From a virus, in IMG/VR virus record IMGVR_UViG_3300012642_000011, positions 128,001-192,000 of that record: DNA of 64,000 nt; one strand, written 5' to 3'. Under the pieces are notes generated by a model, which worked only from the letters and a program-made list of their open reading frames with translations, had not been told where the DNA came from and made no database searches. A program made the translations under genes and the position numbers. This document shows positions 9,837 to 55,487 of this stretch, piece after piece (the first letter of the stretch is position 1; each line of letters opens with the position of its first letter).

Positions 9837-9908
9837 GCTTCTGTAGGTTAACGGTAAACCAGATGACTCTAAATCATTGACATGCGGGTTCGACTCCCGT
9901 CAGAAGCA
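9837..9908 (+). tRNA. suppressor-type tRNA (anticodon CUA, reads UAG)
   Basis: acceptor gcttctg/cagaagc; D-stem ggtt/aacc; anticodon stem gatga/tcatt loop ctCTAaa (U33, A37); T-arm gcggg-ttcgact-cccgt; no alternative register gives a 5-bp stem. Confidence 0.7.
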
Positions 9909-10010
9909 CGAAGATAAAGTAAATCTCTTAAGTTGAGTTTACTCTTTCTTCTGTCTACTTGACAACACAAGAAGTATAGTGTACAATAGAAGACAACAAC
10001 AACAAAATAT

Positions 10011-12347: not shown

Positions 12348-13838
12348 ATGAATTTCTTAGAAGCACATCCAGAAGTTTCATCATCATGGTCTGAAAATAA
12401 TGCATTCTCTCCTGACTCAATCTCCAAAGCATCAAGGAAAAAAGTCATCATCATCTGTGATAAACATGGTGACTATGAAATCAGGGCAGATTCTTACCAC
12501 AATGGCAACAGATGCAAACAATGTGCAGCAGAAGTCAAAGCACAGAGCAAGATCACGAAAGCAATTGCTCAACATGGAAGCGGTCTAGAAAAGTACCCCT
12601 CGCTAAAAAAGTATGCAGTAAGAGATTTCCACGCTAAAGATGATCACAAGATACCATTCCGCTGTCCCGATTGCGCACACGAATGGACGCTATCGCCCTA
12701 TAGTCAAATGATTATCAACGGCTGCCCACAATGTGACCCACAGGCAAAGATAAGAATGAAGAATCACATTCCTACTATGAAGTCTTTGACACATGGAAAC
12801 ATAGCAGACCAGAAACCAGAGATAGTTGCACAATGGTCGCCAAAAAATGATCTAACAACAGAACAAGTCAGTTGCGGTTCTGGTTATCGCGCTACATGGA
12901 TATGTGAGATCAATCCGAACCATGAATGGGAATCCTTTGTTTACCAGAGAGCAGGAAAGAAGGAAACAGGATGCCCACAATGCAATATATCTGGAATAGA
13001 ATCAGAAATTGGTCAACTCCTATCCGATCACCATGTTGACTTCATTCGTTCCAATCGAAAAATTATTGCACCCTATGAACTGGACATATACATTCCAGAG
13101 AAAAATGTAGCCATAGAAGCCAATGGTGTCTATTGGCATACAGAAAAACAAGGAAAAGATAGGAACTATCACTACAACAAGTGGAAACAATGCCATGATC
13201 AAGGAATCCAACTGATCACCATCTGGGAAGATGACTGGATGATGAAAAAAGAACTCATTAAAAAGATGATTCTTCACAAGATTGGACTATCCCATCAGAA
13301 AAGTATCTACGCACGTACATGTTCAGTCAAAGATGTTCCCACTATAGAATCCAATAGATTCTTGAATACTTACCATATTCAAGGAGAAGCAAGAGGAAGT
13401 GTGAAGATTGGACTTCACCATGAAGGAGAACTGGTTGCTATCTCCGTATGGAAGAAACTTAAAGAAGATGAATGGGAATTATCTCGCTATGCAACAAGCA
13501 TGAACGTTGTTGGTGGAGCAAGCAAAGTCATCAAAGCATTCATTCGTCAACACTCGCCAAGCAAGATTGTCACATTCGCTGACCATGAAGTATCTGATGG
13601 TGGACTATATGAAAAATTAGGGTTCACTGCCGACAAGGAGATCAAGCCTGATTACAAGTATGTTATAGACAACAAAAGAATACACAAGTTTAATTATAGA
13701 TTGAAGAGGTTCAAGAGCGATCCCACACTCATCTACGAAGAAGGATTGAGTGAATCACAGTTGGCTCAACTGAATAACATTGATAGAGCATGGGATTGCG
13801 GTAAAACACGATATATTCTGCAGTTACCCTTGATTTGA
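12348..13838 (+). CDS. putative freestanding homing endonuclease: N-terminal zinc-ribbon repeats + C-terminal DUF559/Vsr-like PD-(D/E)xK nuclease (paralog 1)
   Basis: 496-aa ORF, RBS aagga; repeated xxCxxC...HEW...GCPQC units; nuclease core ELDIYIPEKNVAIEANGVYWH; conserved tail RAWDCGKTRY shared with 15917 and 20738 ORFs. Confidence 0.75.
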   Translation: MNFLEAHPEVSSSWSENNAFSPDSISKASRKKVIIICDKHGDYEIRADSYHNGNRCKQCAAEVKAQSKITKAIAQHGSGLEKYPSLKKYAVRDFHAKDDHKIPFRCPDCAHEWTLSPYSQMIINGCPQCDPQAKIRMKNHIPTMKSLTHGNIADQKPEIVAQWSPKNDLTTEQVSCGSGYRATWICEINPNHEWESFVYQRAGKKETGCPQCNISGIESEIGQLLSDHHVDFIRSNRKIIAPYELDIYIPEKNVAIEANGVYWHTEKQGKDRNYHYNKWKQCHDQGIQLITIWEDDWMMKKELIKKMILHKIGLSHQKSIYARTCSVKDVPTIESNRFLNTYHIQGEARGSVKIGLHHEGELVAISVWKKLKEDEWELSRYATSMNVVGGASKVIKAFIRQHSPSKIVTFADHEVSDGGLYEKLGFTADKEIKPDYKYVIDNKRIHKFNYRLKRFKSDPTLIYEEGLSESQLAQLNNIDRAWDCGKTRYILQLPLI

Positions 13839-15782: not shown

Positions 15783-15916
15783 CAGTGTATGAAATAGACC
15801 AGTAAATTACTGGTCTATTTTTGTTTTTGATGGTCGTTTTTATCTTACTTCTCACCATACTTGTATACTTCTCCCAAATGGTGTGCTCTAAGCATAGATC
15901 TTGTTATCATATATGT

Positions 15917-17665
15917 ATGAAGCCCCAACTGTATGAGTATTTTTTAGATCATCCCGAAATGAAAGCAATGTGGTCACGTCGCAATAGTGACGAACTGTTG
16001 TCTAAAACGGCTGGAAGCAATGTGAAGGCACTATGGTCTTGCTCTACTTGTGGGCAAGAATCATTAATCCCTATTTACCGCAAGGTCAACAATCCTCTTA
16101 CATGTTCTACATGCAATGGGAGCAAGGTGGTTCAAGGGGTGAATGATTTGGAAACAATGTATCCCGAAATAGCGTCTGAATGGTCGTCGAGGAATGAGAA
16201 GAAACCTTCAGAAGTAAAATATAGTTCTGCAATCACTGCTGAATGGGATTGTAAAAATGGGCACTCTTTTACTATGTATCTTCCTGAAAGGACGAGATCG
16301 ACCAGGAAATCTCGGGGGTGCCCTGAGTGTAGAAGACAAGAAATCCAGGAAGACAAAGAGAATAACCCTAATAAGCGCTCTATTGCATCGGGAAATGGAT
16401 CAGCGGAGATGCAGCAGATGTTTGTGGAATCATTAGGAAAGATCAAATTTCCAGGAGCGAGGTCAGGCACACTTTGCTTATGGAGATGCTCGAAGGGGCA
16501 TGAATGGAGGCAAGTTCCTAAGAGATTTAATGGATGTGAAATCTGCGATCCGCCCCAGTATATTCTACCGCAGTCCAGGAACAAAAACATTTTAAAGGTA
16601 TCCAATTCGATCCTCCACACTCATCCTCATGCTATAGAATTATGGAATGATTCAAGAAGTCCAGAATCAGTAACTAAAGGATCATCCTATCGCGCTCAAT
16701 GGAAGTGTGCTAAAAACCATCAATGGGAACAATCTGTCTACACAGTGCTCCGGTCCCTCGACAAAGGTCACAAAGCATGCCCTCATTGCTCTTCCATGAT
16801 TTCTGCTGCTGAAAAGAAAATCTCTGAGATTGTAAAGGAGGCAATGAATCCATTGGGTTTAACTGTCCTCACTTCCCATCGTAAATTGATTCCTCCCTAT
16901 GAAGTAGACATTTATGTTCCTGAGAAGAAGATTGCTATTGAATACAATGGTCTCTACTGGCATAGTGATGCTAATCGAAAGGGTAAAGACAGGAATTATC
17001 ACTACAACAAGTGGAAGAAATGCAAAGATCAAGGTGTCCAATTGATCACCGTGTGGGAGGATGATTGGCGTGACCATGAGGACATTGTGACATCAATGTT
17101 GTTGACCAAGTTGGGTGTTTCTGATGCTCAGAAAGTCAATGCTCGTGATTGTGTGATCGTAGAATCTTCTTATACCGATTCTTCTGCATTTCTTGATGCT
17201 CACCATATTCAAGGTTCAGCAAGAGGGAGTTTCTATCTTTCCTTATTGCATGATGGTGTCATGGTGGCAACTTCGGTGTGGGTGAAGAGGGGGTCAGACC
17301 TTGTTCTTGAGCGCTACGCAACCTCTGTGAGCGTTCGTGGTGGCATGGGTAAACTGTTGAAGGCTGGGTGCATAGAAGGCCGTCAGAGGGGCGCACAGCG
17401 CGTTGTGACTTTTGCTGATCATGGTGTTTCTGATGGTGGATTGTATGAGCGCCTTGGTTTCGTTGCTGACAAGGTGTTGAAGCCTGATTATGCGTATGTT
17501 GTAGATGGTGATAGGAAGCATAAGTTCAATTACAGGTTGAAGAGGTTCAAGAATGATCCAGTATTGAGATATGTGGACGGTTTATCTGAATCCCAGTTGG
17601 CTGAGTTGAATGAGATTCCTCGTGTATGGGATTGTGGGAAGACGCGGTATGTGATGGGTCTTTGA
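15917..17665 (+). CDS. putative homing endonuclease: zinc-ribbon repeats (DUF4379-like) + DUF559/Vsr-like nuclease (paralog 2)
   Basis: track ORF 15821..17665 starts over the preceding tRNA; first ATG at 15917 (MKPQLYEYF); repeats GVNDLETMYPEIASEWSSRN...GCPEC; nuclease EVDIYVPEKKIAIEYNGLYWH; tail RVWDCGKTRY. Confidence 0.75.
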   Translation: MKPQLYEYFLDHPEMKAMWSRRNSDELLSKTAGSNVKALWSCSTCGQESLIPIYRKVNNPLTCSTCNGSKVVQGVNDLETMYPEIASEWSSRNEKKPSEVKYSSAITAEWDCKNGHSFTMYLPERTRSTRKSRGCPECRRQEIQEDKENNPNKRSIASGNGSAEMQQMFVESLGKIKFPGARSGTLCLWRCSKGHEWRQVPKRFNGCEICDPPQYILPQSRNKNILKVSNSILHTHPHAIELWNDSRSPESVTKGSSYRAQWKCAKNHQWEQSVYTVLRSLDKGHKACPHCSSMISAAEKKISEIVKEAMNPLGLTVLTSHRKLIPPYEVDIYVPEKKIAIEYNGLYWHSDANRKGKDRNYHYNKWKKCKDQGVQLITVWEDDWRDHEDIVTSMLLTKLGVSDAQKVNARDCVIVESSYTDSSAFLDAHHIQGSARGSFYLSLLHDGVMVATSVWVKRGSDLVLERYATSVSVRGGMGKLLKAGCIEGRQRGAQRVVTFADHGVSDGGLYERLGFVADKVLKPDYAYVVDGDRKHKFNYRLKRFKNDPVLRYVDGLSESQLAELNEIPRVWDCGKTRYVMGL

Positions 17666-20737: not shown

Positions 20738-22675
20738 ATGAAACTCTGTGATAAGTATCCCCAGCTTAAAAATAAGTATTCACAACTTAATAATACTATT
20801 TTTGAGGAAAAAGAGTATCGATACGATGAGTATCTTTTTTGGGATTGTCCTCAAGGGCATCATATTTATAAGCCTGCTAGAGAAATCAATAGATATCAAA
20901 ATTGCAATTCCTGTGAAAACATCAAAAAGACTGGGATTGAGTTCTTTGAAAGCTTGGAATACCTCTATCCCTCTATCGTAGAAAAATATAGTGTCAAAAA
21001 TATTCTTTCTGCAAACAGTGTTCGACCAGACTCACTTTTTAATGCAATCTGGGAAGATCGAGATGAGAAAATAAAAATATACGATAGGGTTCTGGAAGAA
21101 ATATCTTCAGGAAATGTGAAAAGAAATCATGTAACGAAGAGAAACGTAAAAAATAGAAAAAAGAAAGACAATGTTTCTGCGGAAAGTATATCCAAGCCGC
21201 AAGAAAAAGAGGATTCACCTCTTTTAAAAGATGCCTACCCAGACCTTTATGAAATGCGATTAAACGATTGTGAAGATCTTAATATTTGGTCTAATAAAAA
21301 ACTTTTGTGGAAGTGCGACAAAGGGCATGAGTTCACTTCAAGTATACGAAACCTCATTAAAAGATCAACTAAGTGCAATGTCTGTAGTGGAGTTGCCTTG
21401 CAAAAGGGAGTCAATGATATTTCGACCCTGGCTCCTGACCTTGCCTCATGCATTGTATCTCCTGACCCTTCAGAAATTACATTAGCATATAATAAACCTA
21501 TCACTTTTAAATGTTTCACTTGCATGCATCAGTGGGTTTCAAATTTGGATAAAAGAAAAGACAGATCTTTAAGATGTCCTGGATGCAGCGGAAAAACTGT
21601 AATTCATGGATTCAATGACATTGAAACTATTATGCCGCACATCAAAAATTCATGGGCAAAGAATAATAAATACATGCCTTCTGAAATGACAACAAAAAGC
21701 GAAAAAGAAGTATACCTTTATTGTTCGAATGGAATATCGCATGATCTGGTTAAGACTTATGCATATGTAATTTCTCGAACACCTAATAGGAGAACTTATT
21801 TATGTAATCACTGTTCTGGATCTGCTGGTGAAATCGATATGGCAAATTTCATTGCTTCGCTCGGATTTACCACAATCAGAAAAGACAGGAAAATTATAAG
21901 GCCAAAAGAACTGGATGTATATCTTCCTGATCTCAAGGTGGCTTTTGAATACAATGGTCTCTATTGGCATTCAGATAAGGCAGGCAAATCCGACACCTAC
22001 CATTACGACAAGTGGAAGCGCTGTGCTGACAAGGGTATCCAGTTGATCTCTATCTGGGAGGATGATTGGAACTATCGTGAGGACATTGTCAAGAGGATGA
22101 TTGCTCACAAGTTGGGCGTCAGCAATGATCGCAAAGTCTACGCTCGGCAAACCGATGTCGTCATTGTAGACAAGGATGATGCCCGAGCGTTCTGCAATGC
22201 CCACCACATTCAAGGCTATGTATCTGGTAGCGTCTACTATGGTCTCAAAGATCGCAGGACGGATTCTTTGGTGGCTGTGAGCGTCTGGAAGCGTTCAGGT
22301 GACCAATTGCGCCTTGAGAGGTATTGCACGTCTGAGAACGTGATTGGTGGCATGGGAAAGATGTTGAAAGCGGGAGTCCAGTATGCCAAGGACAATGGGT
22401 TGAGCAAGATCGTCACTTTCTCTGATCATGATGTCTCTGATGGTGGACTGTATCGAAGACTTGGATTCATTCCTGACAAGGAGTTGAAGCCTGATTACAA
22501 GTATATCGTCGGCGGTACCAGGGTTCATAAATTCAACTATCGCATCAAGAGGTTCAGGGATGATCCGAACTTGAAGTATGCTGATGGTCTCACTGAATCC
22601 GAGTTGGCGCAGTTGAACAGTCTTCCTCGTGTTTACGATGCCGGCAAGACGCGTTGGGCGATCAATGTATCCTAA
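20738..22675 (+). CDS. putative homing endonuclease: zinc-ribbon repeats + DUF559/Vsr-like nuclease (paralog 3)
   Basis: 645-aa ORF; repeats LQKGVNDISTLAPDLAS..., HGFNDIETIMPHIKNSWAKNN...; nuclease ELDVYLPDLKVAFEYNGLYWH; tail RVYDAGKTRW. Confidence 0.75.
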   Translation: MKLCDKYPQLKNKYSQLNNTIFEEKEYRYDEYLFWDCPQGHHIYKPAREINRYQNCNSCENIKKTGIEFFESLEYLYPSIVEKYSVKNILSANSVRPDSLFNAIWEDRDEKIKIYDRVLEEISSGNVKRNHVTKRNVKNRKKKDNVSAESISKPQEKEDSPLLKDAYPDLYEMRLNDCEDLNIWSNKKLLWKCDKGHEFTSSIRNLIKRSTKCNVCSGVALQKGVNDISTLAPDLASCIVSPDPSEITLAYNKPITFKCFTCMHQWVSNLDKRKDRSLRCPGCSGKTVIHGFNDIETIMPHIKNSWAKNNKYMPSEMTTKSEKEVYLYCSNGISHDLVKTYAYVISRTPNRRTYLCNHCSGSAGEIDMANFIASLGFTTIRKDRKIIRPKELDVYLPDLKVAFEYNGLYWHSDKAGKSDTYHYDKWKRCADKGIQLISIWEDDWNYREDIVKRMIAHKLGVSNDRKVYARQTDVVIVDKDDARAFCNAHHIQGYVSGSVYYGLKDRRTDSLVAVSVWKRSGDQLRLERYCTSENVIGGMGKMLKAGVQYAKDNGLSKIVTFSDHDVSDGGLYRRLGFIPDKELKPDYKYIVGGTRVHKFNYRIKRFRDDPNLKYADGLTESELAQLNSLPRVYDAGKTRWAINVS

Positions 22676-28542: not shown

Positions 28543-28641
28543 TAAGAATTATCGGATTATATTAAATCTTTTTATTTCATATAATCCAATAGCCTCCGAT
28601 ATTCCTTAATGCCATCTTAGTTTATCATAGGAGAATATGAT

Positions 28642-30567
28642 ATGAAAAACATAAAACTCAAAAAGATATCTGCTGCTGTAGTAATCTCATTTGCATCAGC
28701 AGGATTTTTGACTACTGCCAACGCCCCTGGCGCTTTCGCTCTTCCTGATTCTCAAGACAATGTTAATTCCAGCAATATCGTTGATACTGGTGGTCACGTT
28801 GATGTCACAGGAATCAACGCTACAGTTAACGACAATGATACTGTAACATATAAGTATCAAGTTTCTGTTCTTCCTATGATGTCTTCAGATCATGGTCAGA
28901 CTTCATCTGTTTTCAAGATGAGTGTCCCCCAATTTGTAGAGCAAGATCAGGTGAAGTTCACTCTGGTCGGAACATATGACTCTTCTGTTCACATTGACAA
29001 TGTAGATGGAATTAGTGTGCCTGCTACGGAAATCACAAGAGTCAACAGACCTCTTGATGTCTTCAGCGATCGTAATCTACTTTCCTACTATGATGATAAA
29101 ACTGGTAGTAGTAAAGCTAGTCATCAAATCCCCACTACTGATCAAATTCAACTTGAACTCGATAGTGGTTTAACGTCCATGCCGAATGCTGTCTTCTACA
29201 CACCTGCTGGCATTTTATATGAATCTTCAGAGGGACCAACTGAACCAACAGATAGCATGAACCGTTACTATATAGCAAGCAGCTTCGTTAAGCCAGTTGT
29301 CATGGAAGTAGAGATTACTGTTCCTCTAGATGCCGCTCAAACATATAAGACCGTCCCACTTCGAGTAGAGAATTTTACTAGGGCTTTTGAAACAGGCAGC
29401 GCAGAGACTGCCGAAGGAGCACAAAGATTCGATATCGCTCCATATCGATTCTGGGATGACTCAATTAAACAACTGGTCGAAGATTTCCCTGACCAATATG
29501 CAAATCTCCCCTATGTTGATGACTGGATGAGTCCTTTAACCCATCCTGAATTGATTGATGCTGCTTCTGTTCTTCCATCAGGGCTGATGGGAGTCTCTAC
29601 GTGTACTCCTACTAAACCATCTGCGTTCGGTACTATCGGCTATGACATTGCTGCCAGTGCATTCAGCTATGTTAATACCTTCGCCCTTGAAACACATCCA
29701 TATGCTAGTTTTTTGACCACTAAGAATGAAGACATGTGTGATCAGGATGCTATCATAAGCACCCAACTGTTCACTCCTGAAGCCACTGATGATTCATCAA
29801 CTGCTCCACAGGGTCAGTCTGTTGATATAGATGTTCTTAGCAATGACACTCCATCAAATGTAGACCTTGATCCTACTACTCTCAAATTGGTAGATGCAAA
29901 TGATGACCCTGTAGATACCTTGGTTGTTGATGGAGAAGGAACATGGACAGTCGTAGATGGTCGTTTGAATTTTACTCCACTCGCTGATTTCACAGGAGAA
30001 ACTACACCTGTTTCATACATTGTGAAAGATATGAACGGAAATTCAACTACTGCTAACGTTATGGTTACTGTAACTCCTGCGGTAACACCAGAGCCAACTC
30101 CAACACCAGAACCTACAAATCCTGTAGTAACACCAGAGCCAACTCCAACACCAGAACCAACAAATCCTGTAGTAACACCAGAACCAACACCCACACCAGA
30201 ACCAACAGACCCTGTAGTAACACCAGAACCAACACCAACACCAGAACCAACAAATCCTGTAGTAACACCAGAACCAACACCCACACCAGAACCAACAAAT
30301 CCTGTAGTAACACCAGAACCAACACCCACACCAGAACCAACAGACCCTGTAGTAACACCTACCACATCGGTAGTGGTATCAGATCCTACTACAGAGCCTG
30401 TGAAAACAGAAACTCCTCAGTCTGACAGCGTTCTGATTAAGACCGGAGAATCTGTAAAGAACGATAATCAGAATCTTCTTATGGCTGGTGTTCTTTCAGG
30501 TCTGGGAGTTTTGGGATTTATTGGATCTACTCTCGGAATCAGTCGTTTCAGGAAGAATAAGGCATGA
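28642..30567 (+). CDS. secreted cell-wall-anchored surface protein (signal peptide, PT-rich tandem repeats, LPxTG-like LIKTG sorting signal)
   Basis: 641-aa ORF; N-term [33 protein letters not shown]; seven ([15 protein letters not shown]) repeats; C-term LIKTGE + hydrophobic 24 aa + RFRKNKA. Confidence 0.75.
30079..30360 (+). repeat. 45-bp tandem repeat x about 6.5 (encodes the PT linker)
   Basis: unit acaccagaaccaacacc(c/a)acaccagaaccaaca(a/g)a(t/c)cctgtagta repeated head-to-tail; the minus-strand GVG-repeat ORFs in the track are its artefact. Confidence 0.8.
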
Positions 30568-30723
30568 AATAATCGATTATTTAGTTCTTAATCCTGAATA
30601 ATTAGAACAACTGGTGGTAGCAGAAGATCAATTTGTTACCACCAGTTGTTTTTCATCAAGTACTTTGTAAATATTTGATCTCTTGAATACAGTACTTGAC
30701 ATCGATGAAAAGAAAAGATCTTT

Positions 30724-30765
30724 AGGTCTATTTCAAGAAAAATGATGATTTTTCACATACATGAA
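30724..30765 (+). repeat. right copy of 42-bp direct repeat flanking the surface-protein cassette
   Basis: aggtctatttcaagaaaaatgatgatttttcacatacatgaag. Confidence 0.7.
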
Positions 30766-30901
30766 GTGATTTTACTTAATATGGAATCTATCGATTTTTA
30801 GTTCACCAAATATGGCAAGGATGCTCCATGCTGAAGCACGGAGCAGGATGTCAACCAACAATTTCCAACAACTTGTTTTAACTGTTGCTACCAGTATAAA
30901 A

Positions 30902-30942
30902 ACCTTTCTTTTGATAGATTAGTTCTATGACAAAAGAAAGGT
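30902..30942. terminator. hairpin terminator, same motif as 25387-25427
   Basis: acctttctttt-gatagattagttctatgac-aaaagaaaggt. Confidence 0.5.
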
Positions 30943-30948
30943 GTTCTC

Positions 30949-31662
30949 ATGCGTGTAGTCCATGGCCTCTGTGAAGCAAGGTATTCAGGAAGAGGAGACA
31001 CTGTTCTTCCGCTTTTTGAGAGAATGATTCTTTTAAAACAAGATGGAACTGTTGCTATTCATAGTAATACCAGTCTCAAGCCATTGAATTACATGAACGG
31101 TGGTGCCAAAGGCAGCATGGTGGAAACAATGGATGCTTTTGGCAGAAAAGTATGGATCTTTGAGAACTCTAAAGAAAACTTGACTATTACTTTTGACAGA
31201 ATTTTTTCTGACATGAGCATGGACATTCCTGAAGGAGACCCTGGCCTTGAGTATGATGGCACAGAAGATCAGATTCAAGAATTTTTGAGCAATAACATTA
31301 ATATTCTTAATGAAAACTTCGATTTTGTCCAACGTGAATACAGGACAGACAACGGCCCTGTTGACTTGCTTGCTTTCGATAGGGCAACTGGCAAGCATGT
31401 TCTCATTGAAGTCAAAAGAGTTGCCACTATGTCTGCACTTCATCAATTGAAGAGATATTGTGATGGTGTGACGGATTTTGAAGAGTTTGATTCTCTGTTG
31501 GTTGCTTTAGATGTTAGGCCAAAGACTAGAGAGAAAGCACTGAAGATGGGAACACCATGGATACAGTTGAGAAAAGACGATGTTCATATTGGTTGCTTCA
31601 TTGTTGATGAGACATCAGAAGACAGTATGAATGTAGAAGATAATCCCACTTTGCCATTATGA
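30949..31662 (+). CDS. NucS/EndoMS-like endonuclease
   Basis: 237-aa ORF; N-term MRVVHGLCEARYSGRGDTVLPLFERMILLKQDGTVAIHS and C-terminal PD-(D/E)xK core PVDLLAFDRATGKHVLIEVKR match the NucS pattern. Confidence 0.6.
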   Translation: MRVVHGLCEARYSGRGDTVLPLFERMILLKQDGTVAIHSNTSLKPLNYMNGGAKGSMVETMDAFGRKVWIFENSKENLTITFDRIFSDMSMDIPEGDPGLEYDGTEDQIQEFLSNNINILNENFDFVQREYRTDNGPVDLLAFDRATGKHVLIEVKRVATMSALHQLKRYCDGVTDFEEFDSLLVALDVRPKTREKALKMGTPWIQLRKDDVHIGCFIVDETSEDSMNVEDNPTLPL

Positions 31663-31735
31663 AGACTGATTGATGCAGAGTAACTCTCCAATACCCTCAT
31701 CTTTGCTATGATCTCATCAGAGCATATAAAGCCAA

Positions 31736-32170
31736 ATGATCAGGAAGAAAACAATGATTCAGAACTCCTTAAGGTATATTTCAAACAACGCCAACTATGA
31801 TCCCCCTGTTATCACACCTGTGACGATTTCTGAATTGACTCATGGAAAACTGAATAGGTCCAAAGAAGGAATAAATGTCATCTGCAAGGACATTAACACA
31901 GACATCTTATGTAACTCTGTAGAAGCATACAAAGCACACGTATCAAGGAAAGCAAAAGGGATGAAACCAAGAAACCTCTACAATGTTGGAGGTCAGCCGG
32001 GCATTAAATTGATTTTTGACATCGATGTAGATTCTGTTCACTCCTTTGCGAATGACTTTGATCTGATAGACAGGTTGACTGATTTCTTTGAAACGGCATA
32101 CTATTACTCTATCGAACAGTTTTTCCATCCTCCTAACTGTCGATGTTTTTTCTTATCTTTTTTGATATAA
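31736..32170 (+). CDS. 5' part of an archaeo-eukaryotic-primase-like gene interrupted by an IS607-family element
   Basis: 144-aa ORF with IKLIFDIDVD (hhFDIDxD catalytic motif); reading frame runs into the IS left end. Confidence 0.4.
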   Translation: MIRKKTMIQNSLRYISNNANYDPPVITPVTISELTHGKLNRSKEGINVICKDINTDILCNSVEAYKAHVSRKAKGMKPRNLYNVGGQPGIKLIFDIDVDSVHSFANDFDLIDRLTDFFETAYYYSIEQFFHPPNCRCFFLSFLI

Positions 32171-32174
32171 TATA

Positions 32175-32801
32175 ATGATACAAGAGGGAGTTGAAATGAT
32201 GAGTCAGAGAATGCGTATTGGTGAAGCGTGTGAGTACTTGGGTATTCACCAGCAAACTATGAGAAAATATGTAAAACAGGGAAAAATTCCCTGCTCCTAC
32301 AATGACGCAGGACAAAGAATCTTCCTTCTTGAAGACCTCAAAAAATTCATTGGCGAACCCGTATCGCAAGAAAAATACTCCCCAATCTTCTATGTTCGAT
32401 CATCAGACGGAGACAAAAAACTCATCCAAAAACAGATCGAACTTCTCACCGAAAAATATGGTGAGCACCCCGTCATCAAAGACACGGGATCAGGACTCAA
32501 CGAAAAAAGACAAGGACTACAAAGACTCATAAAACTCGCCAAGAAAAGAGAAATATCCCACATCTACATCACCCACCAAGACCGACTCACCCGATTCGGA
32601 TTCACCTACCTACAAGAACTCTTCACAGCATACGGAGTAGAAATCCACACTCTCAACCCAAAGAAAAACAACACACCACACGAAGAACTCATGCAAGACT
32701 TCATGAGCCTCATCGCAAGTTTCAGCGGACGCTTCTACAGAATGAGAAGCAAAGAAAACCAAAGAAAACTCCTTGAAAAAGCAGCAAAAGAGGTCGCATG
32801 A
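32175..32801 (+). CDS. tnpA: IS607-type transposase TnpA (MerR-like HTH + serine recombinase catalytic domain)
   Basis: 208 aa; HTH MRIGEACEYLGIHQQTMRKYVKQGKIP; catalytic IFYVRSSDGD and THQDRLTRFG. Confidence 0.8.
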   Translation: MIQEGVEMMSQRMRIGEACEYLGIHQQTMRKYVKQGKIPCSYNDAGQRIFLLEDLKKFIGEPVSQEKYSPIFYVRSSDGDKKLIQKQIELLTEKYGEHPVIKDTGSGLNEKRQGLQRLIKLAKKREISHIYITHQDRLTRFGFTYLQELFTAYGVEIHTLNPKKNNTPHEELMQDFMSLIASFSGRFYRMRSKENQRKLLEKAAKEVA

Positions 32802-34372
32802 AAAACAGCATCTATCGTGGACTCACCCTACCCCTCCAAGAATACTACCGAATTATAAGAGGGAAGAAAAACTCGGAGTACTCACCTGTCAACAATCAAG
32901 AAGTCATGGACAAGATCGGTAAAACCATAACGATTGTAAAAGACTGCGTAAAATGGGGGATCAACACCCCACAAAATGCAGAATACTACAAAGCCATCAA
33001 CAGCGGAGCACACCCAGAAACCGGCGAACAATTACCCACTAACCTCAATGAGCAAGCCCGCATTCTCAATCATAAGTACCAAGAATACTTACCGGAAGAA
33101 ATGAAAGGGAAATCCATTGTTGAACGTATGATCGGTCACAATCTTCTCGAACTTGAAAGCGCCTTTGGGAAGAAACTCAAAGCAATACATGGAGAAGAAT
33201 ACATTTCTCAAGGATGGGCGCGAACCATCAATAGCGTACTCCCACAACCCAGCGCAAAAATTAACATTGGTAGCACGAACAATGTCTACTCTTCCCAAAA
33301 AGTCGAGGAAAATAAAATTATTCTCGACATGATCTGCTACGATAACTGGTATCGACTTATTTTTACAATTCCTGAGAATTATCAAAAGACCGACTACAGT
33401 AAGATCTCAAAACCGTTGATTACGCTGAACGATCAAGGCGAGATGAAGTTCTATTTCAGTTTTGAATATGATCGTTATTATCCTGAAATCAGCGATCAGT
33501 ATGTTATTGGTGTTGATGTGGGCGTTGTAAAACCAATTGTTCTTAGCGTTATTGAGATCAAAACTGGAAGAATCGTTGCTTCTCATGAATCAACGCCACT
33601 GATTGATTCTCTGGTTCACGATATCAAGCAGACTCAGGAGCAGATCACGAACCTCTACAAAAAGGTTGAGAAATATATTAAAAATGGCGATTACCCTGCT
33701 TATGATAGAGCAATGACCGAAATCCAGCAGGAGCGTTTGGGATTGTCTCGTAAGAGGAAGGAGATGGCGAAGCGTATTGGTCAGTTTGTATCGGATATTG
33801 CTTGTGCTTGGGGCGATCCTGTGATTGCTGTTGAGGATCTTGGTTGGGTTCGCAATACGATGCAGAATGGTCGTTGGAATCGTGGTGAGATTGTGAATTG
33901 GGTGGAGCATTATGCGAATCTTGACGGGAGACTGTGTTATCGTGTGAATGCTGCTCATACTTCATCCACGTGTTGTCTTTGTGGTAGTAAGGGTTATTTT
34001 TCATCTGGTCGGGTTTTCAATTGTTCTTCTTGCGGTGAGAGAATCGATAGAGATGAAAATGCTGCGGCAAATATTGGCAAAAGAGTGATCAATAGCGCCC
34101 TGAAATCAAGCAAAACGAGAAAGAAAAGAAGGAAAGAAAAATGCATTACTGAACAATCTAAGCGTAGGTCACCAGTGAATAGGGGCGCTAAGAATCGCCC
34201 CACTCCTGTTCGTCCTGCTAAGAAGAAAAAGAAAACAGTTCTGAAAAGACAAGAAAAAGTAAAAGATTTTGGTTCCTGTACTAAGGGTAGTATGGGGTTC
34301 GAGAGAGCAGATTCTTCAAAGAACACCCTCACGGGTAACCACAACAATCTTACCATTACTCAAAAAGAGTAA
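32798..34372 (+). CDS. tnpB: TnpB (OrfB, RuvC-like nuclease with C-terminal zinc finger)
   Basis: 524 aa; C-terminus CCLCGSKGYFSSGRVFNCSSCGERIDRDENAAANIG is the TnpB/Cas12-like zinc finger + RuvC-III motif. Confidence 0.85.
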   Translation: MKNSIYRGLTLPLQEYYRIIRGKKNSEYSPVNNQEVMDKIGKTITIVKDCVKWGINTPQNAEYYKAINSGAHPETGEQLPTNLNEQARILNHKYQEYLPEEMKGKSIVERMIGHNLLELESAFGKKLKAIHGEEYISQGWARTINSVLPQPSAKINIGSTNNVYSSQKVEENKIILDMICYDNWYRLIFTIPENYQKTDYSKISKPLITLNDQGEMKFYFSFEYDRYYPEISDQYVIGVDVGVVKPIVLSVIEIKTGRIVASHESTPLIDSLVHDIKQTQEQITNLYKKVEKYIKNGDYPAYDRAMTEIQQERLGLSRKRKEMAKRIGQFVSDIACAWGDPVIAVEDLGWVRNTMQNGRWNRGEIVNWVEHYANLDGRLCYRVNAAHTSSTCCLCGSKGYFSSGRVFNCSSCGERIDRDENAAANIGKRVINSALKSSKTRKKRRKEKCITEQSKRRSPVNRGAKNRPTPVRPAKKKKKTVLKRQEKVKDFGSCTKGSMGFERADSSKNTLTGNHNNLTITQKE

Positions 34373-34709
34373 AGAAAAGATTGACCCTATAAGTTTCACC
34401 TTTGGAGAGAATCAAGATGGAAGCCCTGTTCATATTGTGACCACATCTTTCAACACTTATAGTGGTCCTTCTAGGATCAGGAAGAACAATGCGTTTTTCA
34501 ACGTCAATACTGGTGATTCTGATAATGACGATTCCCCTTTGAATCGCAAAGATATCGCTATAGAAGAATTGCTGATCTGGATCAAGCAGGGAAATCACAA
34601 GAAGGCAAAGAATGATTGCACAGAGAATGACTTCAAGATGATCCCGTGGTAATCACACATCTACGTAAGATGCTTCTCAAGAGATTCTTGAACTCAACAG
34701 GGAAGCAAG

Positions 34710-34738
34710 TTGACATGATGGCATACATCTGATATGAT
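34710..34738 (+). promoter_or_regulatory. sigma70-type promoter (TTGACA-17-TATGAT)
   Basis: ttgaca 34710-34715, tatgat 34733-34738; drives the tRNA-like gene at 34822. Confidence 0.5.
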
Positions 34739-34821
34739 GATGTCATCAACACGTTCAGAACGTATTTGATGTTTGATAACTTAATTGCCGATCTTTCTTA
34801 CACATTATTGTAAGAAACACT

Positions 34822-34896
34822 TAGGGTATGGAATTAATGGTATTTCGTCGTACTCAAGGTTATTACGAAGATACGGGTTCGATTCCCGTTACTCTA
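34822..34896 (+). tRNA. tRNA-like gene with 11-nt anticodon loop (non-canonical)
   Basis: acceptor tagggta/tactcta (7/7 with one G:U), D-stem gaat/attt, T-arm acggg-ttcgatt-cccgt, 75 nt; the only stem in the anticodon region is tcgta/tacga enclosing ctcaaggttat (11 nt). Confidence 0.4.
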
Positions 34897-35031
34897 TCTC
34901 GTCCCGATGCCTCTGGTCTCTTTGGAGATTATGCACACTTCGTGGTCACTGGTGGCACTTGATCAATGCTGTCAAACCTGATCTATGAGTAGTCATAGGT
35001 TGGACTTCAACTTGTTCATTAGAAGGTATTC

Positions 35032-35060
35032 TTGACATGGTGAAAACTGTGTGGTATACT
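35032..35060 (+). promoter_or_regulatory. sigma70-type promoter (TTGACA-17-TGgTATACT)
   Basis: ttgaca 35032-35037, tatact 35055-35060; transcript enters a hairpin-rich leader then the Sec-like tRNA. Confidence 0.5.
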
Positions 35061-35137
35061 TGATGATGTACAGTGGTTGTCCCGCTCTCCATGTGAGATG
35101 TCGGGCATCTTGGTACCTATGAAAACATGGGTACCAC

Positions 35138-35220
35138 GTGCGCTTGCTGAGTAGATGGTTCTGCTGGCGGTCTGCAAAACCGTTGCGAAAGCCGAAGGGG
35201 TTCGATTCTCCCAAGCGCGT
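35138..35220 (+). tRNA. tRNA-Sec-like / allo-tRNA-type fold carrying a Cys GCA anticodon
   Basis: 9-bp acceptor gtgcgcttg/caagcgcgt (two G:U); 6-bp D-stem agtaga/tctgct with 4-nt loop tggt; 6-bp anticodon stem ggcggt/accgtt loop ctGCAaa; 12-nt V-arm gcgaaagccgaa; 4-bp T-stem gggg/ctcc with ttcgatt. Confidence 0.55.
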
Positions 35221-35266
35221 CGAGATTGTAGTACATTGAGTGGTCTTGATGTACTACAATTATAAT

Positions 35267-35340
35267 GGCACTGTGGCTGAATGGTTTTAGGCAACAGATT
35301 GCAAACCTGTTTTATGTGGGTTCAAATCCCATCGGTGCCT
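35267..35340 (+). tRNA. tRNA-Cys (anticodon GCA), canonical 7/5 fold
   Basis: acceptor ggcactg/cggtgcc (one U:G); anticodon stem acaga/cctgt (A31 opposite C39) with enterobacterial-type loop ttGCAaa; T-arm gtggg-ttcaaat-cccat; preceded by 12-bp inverted repeat attgtagtacat/atgtactacaat. Confidence 0.75.
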
Positions 35341-35372
35341 CAAGAATAGAAAAGCGAACAAAGGTGATTACA

Positions 35373-35702
35373 GTGGCTATCTGCTATGCTTGCAAAAGAG
35401 AACTCAAGCCTGAGAATGAAAACATGACTACTGATTATCAGTTCGACAATGCTCTATGGATTGGTCTCTTTGGCGGTTATGGCATGTTCATTGAGTCAAA
35501 GTCATTCAATCAGTACTCTGACAAAGATCATGTAATCAAAGCAGACATGGAAGCAGTGCTATGTCATGATTGCGCTCATGAGGCTTGCGAGAAACTCCCA
35601 TGGCTTGAGAGCCTCATTGACACTCACAACGCTCATTCGCACACGATTGAATATATGAAGGAAAACCCTGACCACTATGGTTGGGATTATGATGAAGATT
35701 GA
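35373..35702 (+). CDS. small zinc-ribbon protein (CYAC...CHDC)
   Basis: in-frame part of track ORF 35265..35702 downstream of tRNA-Cys; GTG at 35373 after aaggtg; alternative ATG at 35424. Confidence 0.45.
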   Translation: MAICYACKRELKPENENMTTDYQFDNALWIGLFGGYGMFIESKSFNQYSDKDHVIKADMEAVLCHDCAHEACEKLPWLESLIDTHNAHSHTIEYMKENPDHYGWDYDED

Positions 35703-35869
35703 TTTTGTCACCCTCGAACAGCACACCCGTCCTTAAGGATTGCTCCACGGTCATTATCATATAGATATCTTGAGAATGTCTTTTGGCATGATGGTATCAT
35801 AAATGAAATGGGATCAATTCTGTACACGGTCTTGCATGTCTAGTCAACTATGGACACAATGATCACATC

Positions 35870-36373
35870 ATGAACAACTTATTGAAAGGTACTTCCATGA
35901 AAGTCATGATCTATACAGGCTACTTTGACTACGAGACCTTTGCGGATGGGAATAATAACATCTTCAAGGACAGGGCAAGAGTCTTTGATATCTCCACTGA
36001 TGAAAAGTTTAGAGCAGCAAAAGTTTTCTTCATCAAGCAGGAACTCCTCCAGTGGGATTACTATTTTGCCTACAGTGACATCAATTTAGATAAGCCTGAG
36101 GAACCTTCATTCACAATGAAAGAGATGAAGGATACTGACTTGGTGGCAGAGAGAACTAAAGAGTATGAACTTGCTATGGAAGAATACGAAGCAAGTCAGA
36201 GAAAGTACCGTGAGCGTGTATCGTTTTTCTCAAGGCTACAAAATGATGATGTGCATGAGAATGATGATCATATCATCGATGAGGTCTTTGACATGATCAT
36301 GGAAAAAGATAAGAATCAGGATTCTCATTACCCTGCAGTGTACTTCAAAGACCTTGAAGATCTGTCACTTTGA
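35870..36373 (+). CDS. hypothetical acidic protein
   Basis: 167-aa track ORF (alternative ATG at 35897). Confidence 0.5.
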   Translation: MNNLLKGTSMKVMIYTGYFDYETFADGNNNIFKDRARVFDISTDEKFRAAKVFFIKQELLQWDYYFAYSDINLDKPEEPSFTMKEMKDTDLVAERTKEYELAMEEYEASQRKYRERVSFFSRLQNDDVHENDDHIIDEVFDMIMEKDKNQDSHYPAVYFKDLEDLSL

Positions 36374-38277: not shown

Positions 38278-38548
38278 CTACAGCAAACATGCTGAACAAG
38301 TGTCACGGAGTTAGAATGTGCGCAACGGGTCAGGGGCGGAAGTCAGCATCCCACGCACATAATGGCTGGTGTGATAACCAAGAGACCACTGAAAAGTGGT
38401 CTCTTGTGTTTTGAATCTTTCTTTTCATTCAGTAAACAGAATCATCACCTTCCCGAGATGTGTACAAAAGTATACACCAAAAAGCATAAAACAATGCAGT
38501 TACGTTGATAACATAGTAATGATAAGCAAATACAATAGGAGTATAAAA

Positions 38549-51336: not shown

Positions 51337-51636
51337 TGATGTTACACAACTGAATATGTAATCCATCAGCAGCCTTGAGAAAGGCTGCTGACATGGGCTT
51401 GACAGGTTTCGATTGGCAACGAAAAAAGTCAGATGCAAGTCACCTTTGGGTAAGAGGTGTAAAAAAGATCCAAAAAAATAATTGCAAACTCTGCAAAGAA
51501 CGATTTCGCCCTAGCTGCGTGATCCATCAGTGTGGTAACTCTGGTTTCTGGTCCACACTGGTGTCGCTTTAAGAAACCACCATCATTCCTTCGCCATAGG
51601 GGAATGAAATGGTACAATATGGCAACATCTATGAAA

Positions 51637-51738
51637 GGGTCTGCCATCGCTTTCATAGATTACTCAATGGCAGTAAACTTGTGAACGAATCTTTCTTTGG
51701 AAATTGTCAAGACCCCGGTTCGATTCCGGGCAGGTCCA
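51637..51738 (+). ncRNA. over-long tRNA-like element (about 102 nt)
   Basis: 5' gggtctg pairs 7/7 (one G:U) with 3' caggtcc after a canonical T-arm cccgg-ttcgatt-ccggg; contains a D-arm-like tact-caatggc-agta; no canonical anticodon arm; about 28 nt longer than a type I tRNA. Confidence 0.35.
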
Positions 51739-51768
51739 CTCTCAATTTAAGGTATTGGTGATGAAAAG

Positions 51769-52851: not shown

Positions 52852-52915
52852 TAGAATAGAAGAACAAGAACCGGATCAAGAAAATATTCTGATCCAATGA
52901 AACATTGGAGTGCAT

Positions 52916-54397
52916 ATGAGTAACTACGACTTCGCGCACCTTCATGTTCACTCACACGGGTCTTTGTTGGATGGATTTTCCAAGCCTGAAGAGTATATTG
53001 AAGCTGCCTTGAAAAACGGACAGAAAAGCCTTGGGTTGACAGACCACGGAAACAACTTCCTCACCTATGAGTTCATCAAATTAGCAAATGACAAAGGCAT
53101 TCGACCCATTCCAGGATGTGAGTTCTATGTTGCTCCGCAAAACCCTGAGGGAGCATTCTGTCAAGAGAGAGTATTCTATGGCACACCATCTCAGAAAAAA
53201 GATGATGTTTCTGCCAATGGCGCATATCTTCACCTGACTGTATGGGCTATAAATAATACAGGATTGAACAATCTCTTCAAACTTTCTACTCTTTCCTATG
53301 ACCCGAATAGACAGTTCATGAACACCAAGAAGCCCAGAATTGATTTCGATCTTCTTGCTGAGTACTCTGAAGGTCTCGTTGTCTCTACAGGATGCCCCTC
53401 ATCTGAGGTATCTACACGACTTCGACTTGGACAAGAAAAAGAGGCATATGAGTATGCTTCACGTCTAAAAGATGTGTTTGGTGACAGACTCTTCGTTGAA
53501 ATCATGGATCACAAGATGACTATTGATCTTGAAAAATCACTTCTTCCTCAGCAAATGGAACTTTCTCGTAAACTAGGCATACCTCTTCTTGCCACCAATG
53601 ACGCACACTATGCATACAAAGAAAATGCTAAACCTCACGAAGAAATGCTTGCTCTACAAACAGGAAGTAAGATGAGTGAACTTCCTTATGATGAAGATGG
53701 TGGAACTCGTTTTGCCTTCAATGGCAGCGGTTACTACCTTAAGTCATCGGAGGAAATGTATCACCTCTTCCCTGACCATGATTTCCCAAATGCCAACAAG
53801 AACACTCTACTCATTGCGGAGATGGCGTCAGACATCAAGTTGCAATACAACCCGCATTTGAAACCCACGCCTTTCATTCCTGAAGGATTTGATAGTAGTT
53901 ATTCCTACTATCGACACCTCATTAAAAAGGGATTGAAAGAAAGGTATGGCAATCATCCTGCACACATCAAAGAAGAAGCAATGAGAAGAGCAAAGTACGA
54001 GATGGAAGTTATTTACTCTTCTGATTTTGTGGATTACATGCTAGTTGTAGAATCTTATTTGAACTGGAGTAAGGAAAAATTCTCTACTAGAAATTCAGAA
54101 GGAAAGATTATGGCATCTAGTATCGGAGCGGGAAGAGGATCTGTGGGTGGATCAATCCATGCTTACTGCCTCGGAATCTCAGAAGTTGATCCTATTCGCT
54201 TTGGATTGTTCTTTGAAAGGTTCTTGTCAGCAGGACGTGGACCTGAATACATGATTGAATTTAATGATGGAAGCCTTGAAAAACACGTTGCTTCCAACTC
54301 TTTCCTTGCTCAAAGAAACAAGGAAGAGCGTGAAAAAATGTACGTTCACCAGTTAAACGTTGGGGACACAGTATACTACGAACAGGAGCATTGCTGA
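52916..54397 (+). CDS. dnaE: DNA polymerase III alpha (DnaE) N-terminal piece: PHP domain + first palm segment
   Basis: FAHLHVHSHGSLLDG PHP motif; ends ...GRGSVGGSIHAYCLGISEVDPIRFGLFFERFL just before where the catalytic PDxDxDF motif should follow; ATG at 52916 (track uses GTG 52910). Confidence 0.8.
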   Translation: MSNYDFAHLHVHSHGSLLDGFSKPEEYIEAALKNGQKSLGLTDHGNNFLTYEFIKLANDKGIRPIPGCEFYVAPQNPEGAFCQERVFYGTPSQKKDDVSANGAYLHLTVWAINNTGLNNLFKLSTLSYDPNRQFMNTKKPRIDFDLLAEYSEGLVVSTGCPSSEVSTRLRLGQEKEAYEYASRLKDVFGDRLFVEIMDHKMTIDLEKSLLPQQMELSRKLGIPLLATNDAHYAYKENAKPHEEMLALQTGSKMSELPYDEDGGTRFAFNGSGYYLKSSEEMYHLFPDHDFPNANKNTLLIAEMASDIKLQYNPHLKPTPFIPEGFDSSYSYYRHLIKKGLKERYGNHPAHIKEEAMRRAKYEMEVIYSSDFVDYMLVVESYLNWSKEKFSTRNSEGKIMASSIGAGRGSVGGSIHAYCLGISEVDPIRFGLFFERFLSAGRGPEYMIEFNDGSLEKHVASNSFLAQRNKEEREKMYVHQLNVGDTVYYEQEHC

Positions 54398-54398
54398 G

Positions 54399-55487
54399 AT
54401 GAGCGATAACTACATGGAAATCTACAAGAAATACCGCCCTAATCGTTGGGAAGATGTTATTGGTCAGGACAAGACTGTTAAAAGCCTGAAGGTATCTCTT
54501 CTCAAAGACAGCCTTCCTACAGGATACGGCTTCTTCGGAAAAAGAGGAACGGGAAAGACCACTCTTGCACTCTTGTTAGCAAAAGCGGTCAACTGTGAGA
54601 AGATGTCTTCTACAGGCAACCCTTGTAATGAATGTTCTTCATGTGTCAGCATTGACTTTAACAATAACCCAGATGTGGTTTATGAGTCCATGGCTAACAA
54701 TGGTGGCGTAGAAGACGTAAGAAAGATGGTGGAAAAGGCAAACTTTGCACCTCTTTATAAGAAAAGAGTATTCATCTTTGATGAGGTTCATAATCTTTCG
54801 AAGGCTGCATTTGAATCTCTTCTGATTCCCCTTGAATCCCCCACGACAAAAGCCCTTTTCATCCTTTGCTCAACCGATCCCCAGAAGATCCCTGAGACAA
54901 TTTTCTCTCGTATCAAGAAGAGGAATCTCATGCTAGTAAGCAATGAGACTATGAGAAAGAAAGTCGAGGAGATTCTTGAGAAAGAGGGAGAGAGTCTTTC
55001 TGACGATCAAATTGATTCCATTGTCCGACAGGGAAAAGGATCTGTCAGAGATACTTTGAACATTCTTGAATCAGAACTCATTGATGTAAATGATGATGAC
55101 GATGATGAAGAAGAAGTAGACTTTTATAGTCTGTTGATTCACTCTGTCAGTGAACATGACATCAGTAAGACTTATAGGACAATTGCAGAAGCAACTGCTG
55201 CTGGTGTCTCAGGAGATGACCTTGCAGAACAGTTGTTCTCGGATGTGCGAGATCTGATGATCATTGCATCAGGGGGAGATAGGGAATTGACTCCTAACCT
55301 TCCAGAAGCAGACTATACGGCAGTGATTAAGGGCATGATGGGATTGGGAGGATTGAATATGGTGGCACAGAGCATTGGCGAAGCCATCAGCAAAATGGGA
55401 ATGAATGTAGATTCAAGAATCATGCTAGAAGTTGCTCTAGGCAACTCTATCAGAAAACTTAAAGCGGCTAAAGCAAAGAGGGGATGA
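54399..55487 (+). CDS. dnaX: DNA polymerase III gamma/tau-like clamp-loader ATPase (DnaX)
   Basis: YKKYRPNRWEDVIGQ, Walker A FGKRGTGKTT, Zn module CNECSSC, Walker B FIFDEVH, sensor SRI; sits between the two dnaE pieces. Confidence 0.8.
   Translation: MSDNYMEIYKKYRPNRWEDVIGQDKTVKSLKVSLLKDSLPTGYGFFGKRGTGKTTLALLLAKAVNCEKMSSTGNPCNECSSCVSIDFNNNPDVVYESMANNGGVEDVRKMVEKANFAPLYKKRVFIFDEVHNLSKAAFESLLIPLESPTTKALFILCSTDPQKIPETIFSRIKKRNLMLVSNETMRKKVEEILEKEGESLSDDQIDSIVRQGKGSVRDTLNILESELIDVNDDDDDEEEVDFYSLLIHSVSEHDISKTYRTIAEATAAGVSGDDLAEQLFSDVRDLMIIASGGDRELTPNLPEADYTAVIKGMMGLGGLNMVAQSIGEAISKMGMNVDSRIMLEVALGNSIRKLKAAKAKRG

Follow-up and report, generated by a model that had tools for sequence, protein, structure and literature searches.

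We analysed a stretch of 64,000 nucleotides from a virus (IMG/VR record IMGVR_UViG_3300012642_000011, positions 128,001 to 192,000), referred to here as the window, in which an insertion sequence carrying the genes tnpA and tnpB lies inside a gene of the virus. The 5' part of this host gene (codons 1-132) occupies positions 31736-32131, and its 3' part (codons 133-219 and the stop codon) occupies positions 34389-34652. The element between them, at 32132-34388, is most probably an autonomous, 2,257-bp insertion sequence of the IS607 family that sits in sense orientation between codons 132 and 133 of a gene in a huge phage. Both gene parts, the element and the features described within it are on the plus strand.

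The tnpA gene was assigned to 32196-32801. Its open reading frame (ORF) can also be read from an ATG at 32175; the ATG at 32196, which is preceded by AGAGGGAG (a ribosome-binding site), is the likelier start. Comparison of the protein with Pfam showed a helix-turn-helix domain at the N-terminus (HTH_17/MerR, residues 13-59) and a Resolvase domain at residues 71-198 (8e-21). The protein scored 144 bits against the NCBIfam equivalog transpos_IS607, for which the cut-off is 110, and matched PHROG 6620, annotated as 'transposase', at 2e-42. The initial annotation of this DNA had described an IS607-family element made up of a serine-recombinase TnpA and a TnpB; both ORFs were found at the positions given there, with TnpA above the NCBIfam cut-off for IS607, and the ATGA overlap of the two genes that it reported was located at 32798-32801.

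The tnpB gene (32798-34372) encodes a protein of 524 amino acids (aa), which matched Pfam Cas12f1-like_TNB (PF07282) at 1e-14, the PHROG 506 transposase at 3e-24, and the NCBIfam model guided_TnpB. In an alignment of TnpB with 14 homologues (A1), the RuvC triad D240, E346 and D419 was invariant, as were the zinc-finger cysteines C392, C395 and C409. The score against the NCBIfam model IS607_TnpB was 30 bits. A search of IMG/VR with the single TnpB protein found no relatives, and an alignment-based TnpB search of the same database recovered only a distant family of 33-37 % identity. The IS607 family is a known one, to which the element adds a rather divergent new member.

Insertion site, ends and other copies

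The ORF upstream of the element (31736-32170) encodes 144 aa, and the open frame downstream of it runs to 34652. Among 5.8 billion clustered proteins, the 144-aa ORF had three relatives only. One of these, P0003, is 219 aa long and reads ...YYYSIEQFFHP|ISFTFGENQDGSPVHIV..., which is the upstream ORF of the window joined to the downstream frame. L001, the contig on which P0003 is encoded, matches the window in the neighbouring genes too, with NucS upstream and a 145-aa ORF downstream. The 5' part of the host gene is colinear with P0003 (L001 positions 1613-2008), and the 3' part matches the last 87 codons of P0003 in L001 at 100 % identity, at the level of protein and of DNA alike. Deletion of 32132-34388 in silico produced an ORF of 660 nt and 219 codons that is colinear with P0003. 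The proposal in the initial annotation that a gene had been split by the insertion is thus borne out by an uninterrupted gene that spans both flanks, and the alignment to an uninterrupted homologue, which had been named there as a check, fixed the insertion at 32132-34388. Coding potential had also been said to resume directly after the tnpB stop, at 34380; the downstream frame to 34652 was confirmed, and its start is placed at 34389 instead.

The element itself supplies the final 12 codons of the 144-aa ORF (PNCRCFFLSFLI), from sequence that is common to other element copies. As read from the DNA, the insertion would leave the host gene with 132 native and 12 element-encoded residues, and with a 3' part that has no start codon. 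The occupied allele was present in at least 20 contigs from many samples, and is therefore not an assembly artefact. The truncated host gene appears to be dispensable, and its truncation tolerated.

The ends of the element were set by homology to L001 and to two further contigs, L003 and L004. Homology between L001 and the window covers 30117-32131 and then 34384-35854, with a break at 32131 and a resumption at 34384-34389. The left junction in the window reads TTTTTCCATCCT|CCTAACTG and the right junction TTGACCCT|ATAAG (longer form AAGATTGACCCT|ATAAGTTTCACC), while the empty site in L001 reads TTTTTCCACCCTATAAG (longer form TTTTTCCACCCTATAAGTTTCACC). The occupied and empty sites differ by a 2,257-bp insert without target-site duplication, the position of which is ambiguous by the 3 nt CCT. 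The left copy of this shared CCT lies at 32129-32131, with the probable crossover dinucleotide CC at 32129-32130. Homology of the window to the independent copies in L003 and L004 ends exactly at 34388. A single-nucleotide polymorphism (SNP) separates L001 (CAC) from the window (CAT) at the site, and is a synonymous third-position change in a His codon. We also considered a boundary 4 nt further to the left, with the element running from TCCT to TTGA and a target of A^CCCT. The SNP then vanishes, but the junctions share no 2-nt core; this placement was rejected because serine-recombinase chemistry requires that the junctions share a dinucleotide.

The left-end subterminal region (32134-32176) comprises a TAACTGT motif at 32134-32140, a pyrimidine-rich arm at 32139-32162 and a conserved TGATATAAT at 32163-32171, which from its sequence may be an extended -10 element for tnpA. 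The left-end motifs are common to the copies in L004 and in two more distant contigs, L126 and L131. The pyrimidine-rich arm is imperfectly inverted with respect to 34362-34385, forming an inverted repeat (I1) of 24 nt with 75 % complementarity. Long terminal inverted repeats are absent, I1 being the best end-to-end repeat of the element; it is of low complexity, and hence of limited weight. A scan for promoters and terminators within the element gave no more matches than chance, and no further copy turned up elsewhere in the window when it was searched with the element by BLAST and tblastn.

On L003, which is from the same sample as the empty-site contig L001, we found a copy with 99.5 % identity over 2,219 bp. 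The right flank of this copy differs from that of the window and contains genes for a DUF723 protein and the ribonucleotide reductase small subunit. The presence of a 99.5 % identical copy at another locus, in a sample that also holds the empty site, therefore points to recent movement of the element. Contigs L004 and L005 carry an element of 76.5 % identity (TnpB 80 %), the right end of which is again ...AAAAGATTGACCCT|. A relative with a TnpB of 47 % identity occupies three different sites (L126, L127-129 and L130), and one more right junction was provided by a further relative, L346.

All independent right junctions (7/7) read CCCT followed by variable sequence, with a fixed T after CC. The independent left junctions (5/5) have the form A-N-CCT, after which comes a left end with the TAACTGT motif; N stands for T in the window and in L004, and for G in the relative of 47 % TnpB identity. 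CC(T) is common to both junctions, to the empty site and to the other insertions with available junctions; CC and CT are indistinguishable on these data. Such a pattern would be expected, by analogy, of a serine-recombinase crossover at a short core that is identical in the left end, the right end and the target, and the likeliest crossover dinucleotide is CC, as read on the sense strand of tnpB, though it could be CT. Scans of viral contigs with the 14-mer AAAAGATTGACCCT, and of viral and metagenome contigs with GGTTCCTGNNNTNAGGGTA, returned chance matches only, and no tested match encoded a TnpB.

The right-end RNA and its predicted guide

The scaffold of a predicted omega-RNA (reRNA) was placed at 34262-34388; it overlaps the 3' end of tnpB for nearly all of its length and ends in ...AAGAUUGAC-CCU. 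The predicted guide segment, ATAAGTTTCACCTTTGGAGA at 34389-34408, is the flank directly 3' of the right end, and following the model established for the element ISXfa1 (PMC10711439) it would also specify the TnpB target. The last 127 nt of the element folded with a minimum free energy of -34.7 kcal/mol and z = -3.08, and none of the shuffled sequences folded as well (0/200). Counterpart segments gave z = -3.13 in L004 and z = -2.68 in L126, and only z = -0.95 in L346, for which 38/200 shuffles were as good. A control segment inside tnpB gave z = +0.41.

One architecture was recovered in independent folds of the window, L004 and L126 sequences, and largely also in L346. In this architecture, an outer stem, formed by GGUU paired either with AACC or with a terminal RACC, encloses hairpins. 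The first enclosed hairpin is formed by CCUGUACUA/UAGUAUGGG in the window and by CCUGCGAUA/UAUUGUGGG in L126; a second also lies inside the outer stem, and a third is seen in the window and L004. A long terminal hairpin (AAUCUU/AAGAUU in the window, AUUGUUU/AAACAAU in L126) is followed by RAC-CCU and then by the flank. RNAalifold applied to five sequences identified 9 pairs with compensatory changes, on a MAFFT alignment that is imperfect in its 3' half.

We built a covariance model from five copies (R2), leaving out L131, whose TnpB is 38 % identical. The model matched L131 end to end with 28.9 bits (E = 3e-4 in 164 kb), and the match ended 4 nt past the tnpB stop. A structured right-end RNA was also seen in a separate and much better sampled family (67 loci in IMG/VR huge-phage contigs, with TnpBs of 33-37 % identity), with 43 predicted pairs, 19 of them showing compensatory changes. 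A second covariance model (R1), representing this distant 67-locus family, gave no match in the window region with default filters. The initial annotation had expected an omega-RNA at the right end and had suggested looking for it with a covariance model; the structured RNA found there is consistent with an omega-RNA in its stable fold, in the architecture that it shares with its relatives and in the recognition of L131 by R2. A conserved structured RNA at the right end of the window's subfamily is, as far as sequence comparison can tell, well supported, and its position and family suggest that it is the guide RNA of TnpB.

Under this model, TnpA would excise the element as a double-stranded circle, which would reintegrate by crossover at a matching dinucleotide, likely CC. 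The junction of the excised circle would read AAGATTGAC-CC-TCCTAACTG, and the empty donor site TTTTTCCAT-CC-TATAAGTTTC. The tnpB mRNA would be processed into a guide RNA of ~127 nt, with the scaffold at 34262-34388 including the fixed CCU, and the guide would be provided by the adjacent flank from 34389 onward. Once the element has left, TnpB and this RNA would together cleave the vacant site (ATCCT, then ATAAGTTTCACC...), and the break would be mended by recombination with a genome copy that still carries the element, which would thereby be regained. Cleavage would not affect an occupied site, whose right end reads ACCCT as compared with ATCCT in the vacant target. In the left flanks, the nucleotide 5' of CC is T (window and L004) or G (the 47 % relative), and it is C at every right end. 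The only empty allele that we saw, in L001, also has C at this position, which is suggestive with regard to discrimination between vacant and occupied sites and could easily be due to chance. We infer the expression of the RNA, the target-adjacent motif and the cleavage of DNA by TnpB by analogy.

Known systems and alternative readings

ISXfa1 of Xylella fastidiosa is a member of the IS607 family with a characterised TnpB and reRNA (Yoon et al., NAR 2023, PMC10711439). In both IS607 and ISXfa1, crossover is reported to take place at GG, and the nucleotide that follows the right end is fixed (PMC10711439). The ISXfa1 reRNA of ~150 nt reaches past the right end, and the fixed flanking nucleotide is part of the scaffold (PMC10711439). 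The element of the window is like ISXfa1 in its layout, with a serine-recombinase tnpA followed by tnpB, in the absence of a target duplication and, probably, in a crossover at a matching dinucleotide. Further likenesses are a right-end guide RNA, predicted here, that extends into the flank, and a fixed nucleotide after the crossover, which is T in 7/7 junctions. Unlike ISXfa1, however, it has CC(T) in place of GG on the tnpB sense strand, and the predicted target-adjacent motif is therefore of the pyrimidine type (TCC/GCC) and not GGG. It is also set apart by its 524-aa TnpB and by a predicted RNA scaffold that lies almost entirely inside the coding sequence (CDS).

The IS607 TnpBs that are associated with the RAGATH-18 motif, such as that of ISFba1, are 330-433 aa long and use the motifs AGGAG/GAGGG (Cell Res 2024, PMC11061315). 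The reRNA of the ISFba1 type lies wholly downstream of the CDS and contains the RAGATH-18 motif (PMC11061315). The window TnpB shares with these proteins the D-E-D triad of RuvC and a guide RNA that is predicted to lie at the right end, but differs from them in its length of 524 aa, in the lack of an Rfam match and in a right end only 16 nt past the stop codon. The prototype IS607 of Helicobacter pylori (ISfinder) resembles the window element in its serine recombinase with an N-terminal MerR-type helix-turn-helix, in the overlap of tnpA and tnpB, and in having neither target duplications nor long terminal inverted repeats. The two differ in host, a bacterial chromosome as against a huge phage, and the TnpB of the window is only distantly related (30 bits).

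The elements of huge phages in IMG/VR that mostly carry tnpB alone, with TnpBs of 33-37 % identity, have a homologous TnpB and a structured right-end RNA in which a terminal hairpin is followed by RAC and then by the flank. They are GC-rich, have a longer RNA and mostly lack tnpA, for which a full-length match was found at 1/67 loci, whereas the window copy is autonomous. Their copy number per genome is also high, with at least 8 in one contig of 252 kb, as compared with the single copy of the window. This group (L132-L198) includes, for example, IMGVR_UViG_3300006259_000192 (252 kb), and its members have a strongly conserved, covarying right-end RNA that ends in ...TTGATAC, with N-(C/G)-T next. 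For the left end, a logo of this family was abandoned, as most copies are without tnpA and their boundaries could not be fixed.

We next weighed other explanations of the locus. The two flanking ORFs could be unrelated or separate genes, with the element in an intergenic gap and no gene split at all. A homologous ORF in another contig, L002, does end in ...FFHR* at the exact site, after which 25 nt of unrelated sequence lead to the contig end. P0003 in L001, however, reads through both parts as one 219-aa ORF, deletion of 32132-34388 gives the same frame and length, and the last 12 codons of the 144-aa ORF fall inside sequence common to the element copies; we regard two separate genes as excluded by L001, with a probability close to nil. 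The L002 junction itself (4650-4680, homologous to window position 32127), where ...FFHR* is followed by GTTAATCTAAATAGTAGTAAATAGATTA up to the contig end, may represent a second, different insertion at the same site, or an assembly or contig break. The L002-specific junction sequence was not found in the window or in the genome contigs. As to the identity of the host gene, the initial annotation had proposed an archaeo-eukaryotic primase (AEP/PrimPol). A hydrophobic run followed by DIDVD (window residues 91-99), with SPVH further on, has a superficial likeness to AEP motifs I and II. Yet neither the fragments of the host gene nor the intact P0003 had a match at E ≤ 10 in Pfam, PHROG or NCBIfam, and a search of the PDB with P0003 had none at the same threshold. 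Distant homologues were not found either: HMMER, run exhaustively on 1.84 billion representatives, recovered nothing but a truncated form of the same host protein, and tblastn of both gene fragments against phages gave chance-level matches or none. Moreover, DIDVD of the window is DLNVD in P0003, with Asn in place of the central Asp, and either possible DxD pair therefore loses an Asp. A primase thus seems very unlikely, and that identification was dropped; the host gene is one of unknown function without detectable relatives. An AlphaFold2 single-sequence model of the host protein had a mean pLDDT of 31.9 and was unusable. A word-indexed search with the C-terminal 87 residues returned nothing, though P0003 contains them at 100 % identity; a lack of homologues in word-indexed searches is therefore unreliable for short queries, reflecting a limit of the index and not absence.

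A different class of explanation concerns what the element does at this site. IStrons, chimeras of a group I intron and an IS605- or IS607-type element, are like the present case in that a TnpB-carrying element lies inside a gene in sense orientation, and IS607-type IStrons have been reported (bioRxiv 10.1101/2023.11.20.567912). If the element were removed from the host mRNA in this way, the host gene would stay functional, and the shared orientation and the downstream gene fragment, which shows no decay, would both fit. However, Rfam detected no group I intron core even at E ≤ 10, the ~43-64 nt between the left end and the tnpA start leave no room for one, and the possible 3' boundaries at 34385-34388 never end in the G that is required at the 3' splice site of a group I intron. 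An IStron was excluded on these grounds and is highly improbable. It is also conceivable, though unlikely, that the element is fixed and effectively immobile, with TnpB kept not for upkeep of the transposon but as a weapon for homing or exclusion, for example one that cuts the empty-site allele of co-infecting competitor phages. The exact TnpB was found in 20 contigs, with all places listed at this locus, and the empty allele with its C in place of T at the position that would distinguish target from right end fits such a role. So does a divergent patch at 31873-32122, which stops at the insertion site and, with a right flank of ~100 % identity, resembles co-conversion. The window and L001 are ~99.5 % identical over 30923-31872, show 40-48 matches per 50 nt in the patch, and are ~100 % identical to the right of the insertion site (34389-35229). 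The N-terminal part of the host gene has 15 synonymous and 15 non-synonymous codon differences, and no codon differs in the 3' part (0/88). L002 is window-like inside the patch and less similar upstream of it. A breakpoint at the insertion site could reflect co-conversion from nuclease-stimulated homing, or one chance event of ordinary mosaicism. Against this stand an intact tnpA, whose product scores above the IS607 equivalog cut-off, and the 99.5 % copy at another locus; moreover, phage mosaicism is common, and a single coincident breakpoint with a single synonymous SNP carries little weight. A broader and still speculative view, which we hold to be doubtful, is that a phage-restricted clade of IS607 TnpBs of unusual size (~520 aa) exists, with a compact guide RNA embedded in the CDS and a TCC/GCC motif, and that the patch and the T-to-C change are footprints of homing and escape between co-infecting huge phages.

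We return to a mobile IS607-family insertion sequence that splits a phage gene and would encode a guide RNA at its right end. Several observations weigh against it. TnpB scored 85.5 bits (4e-24) against guided_TnpB, short of the curated threshold of 100. The 20 contigs with the exact TnpB all have it, in the places listed, at this one site, and current activity is supported by L003 only. The crossover reads CC on the sense strand and not GG as in ISXfa1, and CT is conceivable. For the RNA, the window-type alignment amounts to about four effectively different sequences. When the filters were switched off, the best match of R1 in 31500-35000 was at 34256-34390, end to end, but with 5.6 bits and E = 0.26, which is non-significant. 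A scan of 31500-34900 against Rfam at E ≤ 10 gave a tRNA and three chance-level matches only, and RAGATH-18 was not among them. The target-adjacent motif was deduced from two window-type left flanks (both CATCCT) and three of the 47 % relative (AGCCT). Taking all of this into account, we assign a probability of about 85 % to this explanation, as one joint figure for the element, the split gene and the guide-RNA model.

Genome context and significance

The window contains 36 tRNA genes along with genes for a tmRNA, a CCA-adding enzyme and DNA polymerase III alpha, and an identical region was present on contigs with lengths of 332 kb and up to 437 kb. This gene content and these contig sizes (332-437 kb) fit a huge phage. 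Megablast of 31000-36000 against GenBank phages gave no match.

Directly upstream of the split gene lies a NucS-like endonuclease gene (30949-31662; NucS_N and NucS_C), which is kept in all related contigs. Further upstream, at 28642-30567, a 641-aa secreted protein is encoded that has a CshA/Big_9 adhesin domain and a long (PEPTPT...) repeat; its C-terminus, with an IKTGE motif followed by a hydrophobic and basic tail, is like a sortase anchor. The gene for this protein is wholly absent from L002 (an indel at 28577-30721 relative to L002). Three paralogous large DUF4379 treble-clef zinc-finger proteins are encoded among the tRNA genes, at 12348-13838, 15821-17665 and 20738-22675, and could be selfish genes of a homing-endonuclease-like kind. 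Two separate ORFs make up DNA polymerase III alpha, the first with the PHP domain and the first part of the NTPase domain and the second with the rest of that domain, the fingers and HHH. A clamp-loader-like AAA+ gene (DNA_pol3_delta2) is located between both polymerase ORFs, the three ORFs occupying 52910-54397, 54360-55487 and 55496-58183.

Several of the RNA genes are unusual. A tRNA with the anticodon CTA, which is of the amber suppressor type and was called 'Pyl' by ARAGORN, is present at 9837-9909. Among plus-strand ORFs of at least 100 aa, TAG serves as the stop codon in 2/54, TGA in 37 and TAA in 15. The CTA tRNA and the rarity of TAG hint at a partial reassignment of TAG, of the kind seen in some huge phages. 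A tRNA-like gene at 34822-34898, a short way downstream of the split gene, has an irregular anticodon loop with the 4-base anticodon 'caag', possibly of the frameshift-suppressor type, and a near-consensus promoter lies ahead of it at 34710-34738. In another tRNA-like gene (2578-2649), the anticodon loop is likewise irregular, with a 2-base 'tt'. A tRNA-Cys(GCA) at 35139-35221 has a long extra arm and scores 48.9 against the Rfam tRNA-Sec model (threshold 47), and a second, ordinary tRNA-Cys follows at 35267-35341. The tmRNA at 51395-51741 is full-length and has the tag ANSAKNDFALAA. At 38297-38383, a borderline match to the bacterial small SRP RNA (40.4 bits, cut-off 40) would be unusual for a phage, if real.

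The insertion event is in itself routine. Its value is that the site is available both with and without the element, as is a further near-identical copy, and that these together define the ends of a divergent IS607 element to the nucleotide. This yields predictions that can be tested, namely the guide (ATAAGTTTCACCTTTGGAGA), the scaffold (34262-34388) and the candidate motif. At the same time, an unsupported 'primase' annotation has been removed from a gene without detectable relatives. The TnpB of the element represents a lineage that is frequent among huge phages and is set apart from the characterised TnpBs of the IS607 family in size, in the placement of the RNA and in junction sequence.

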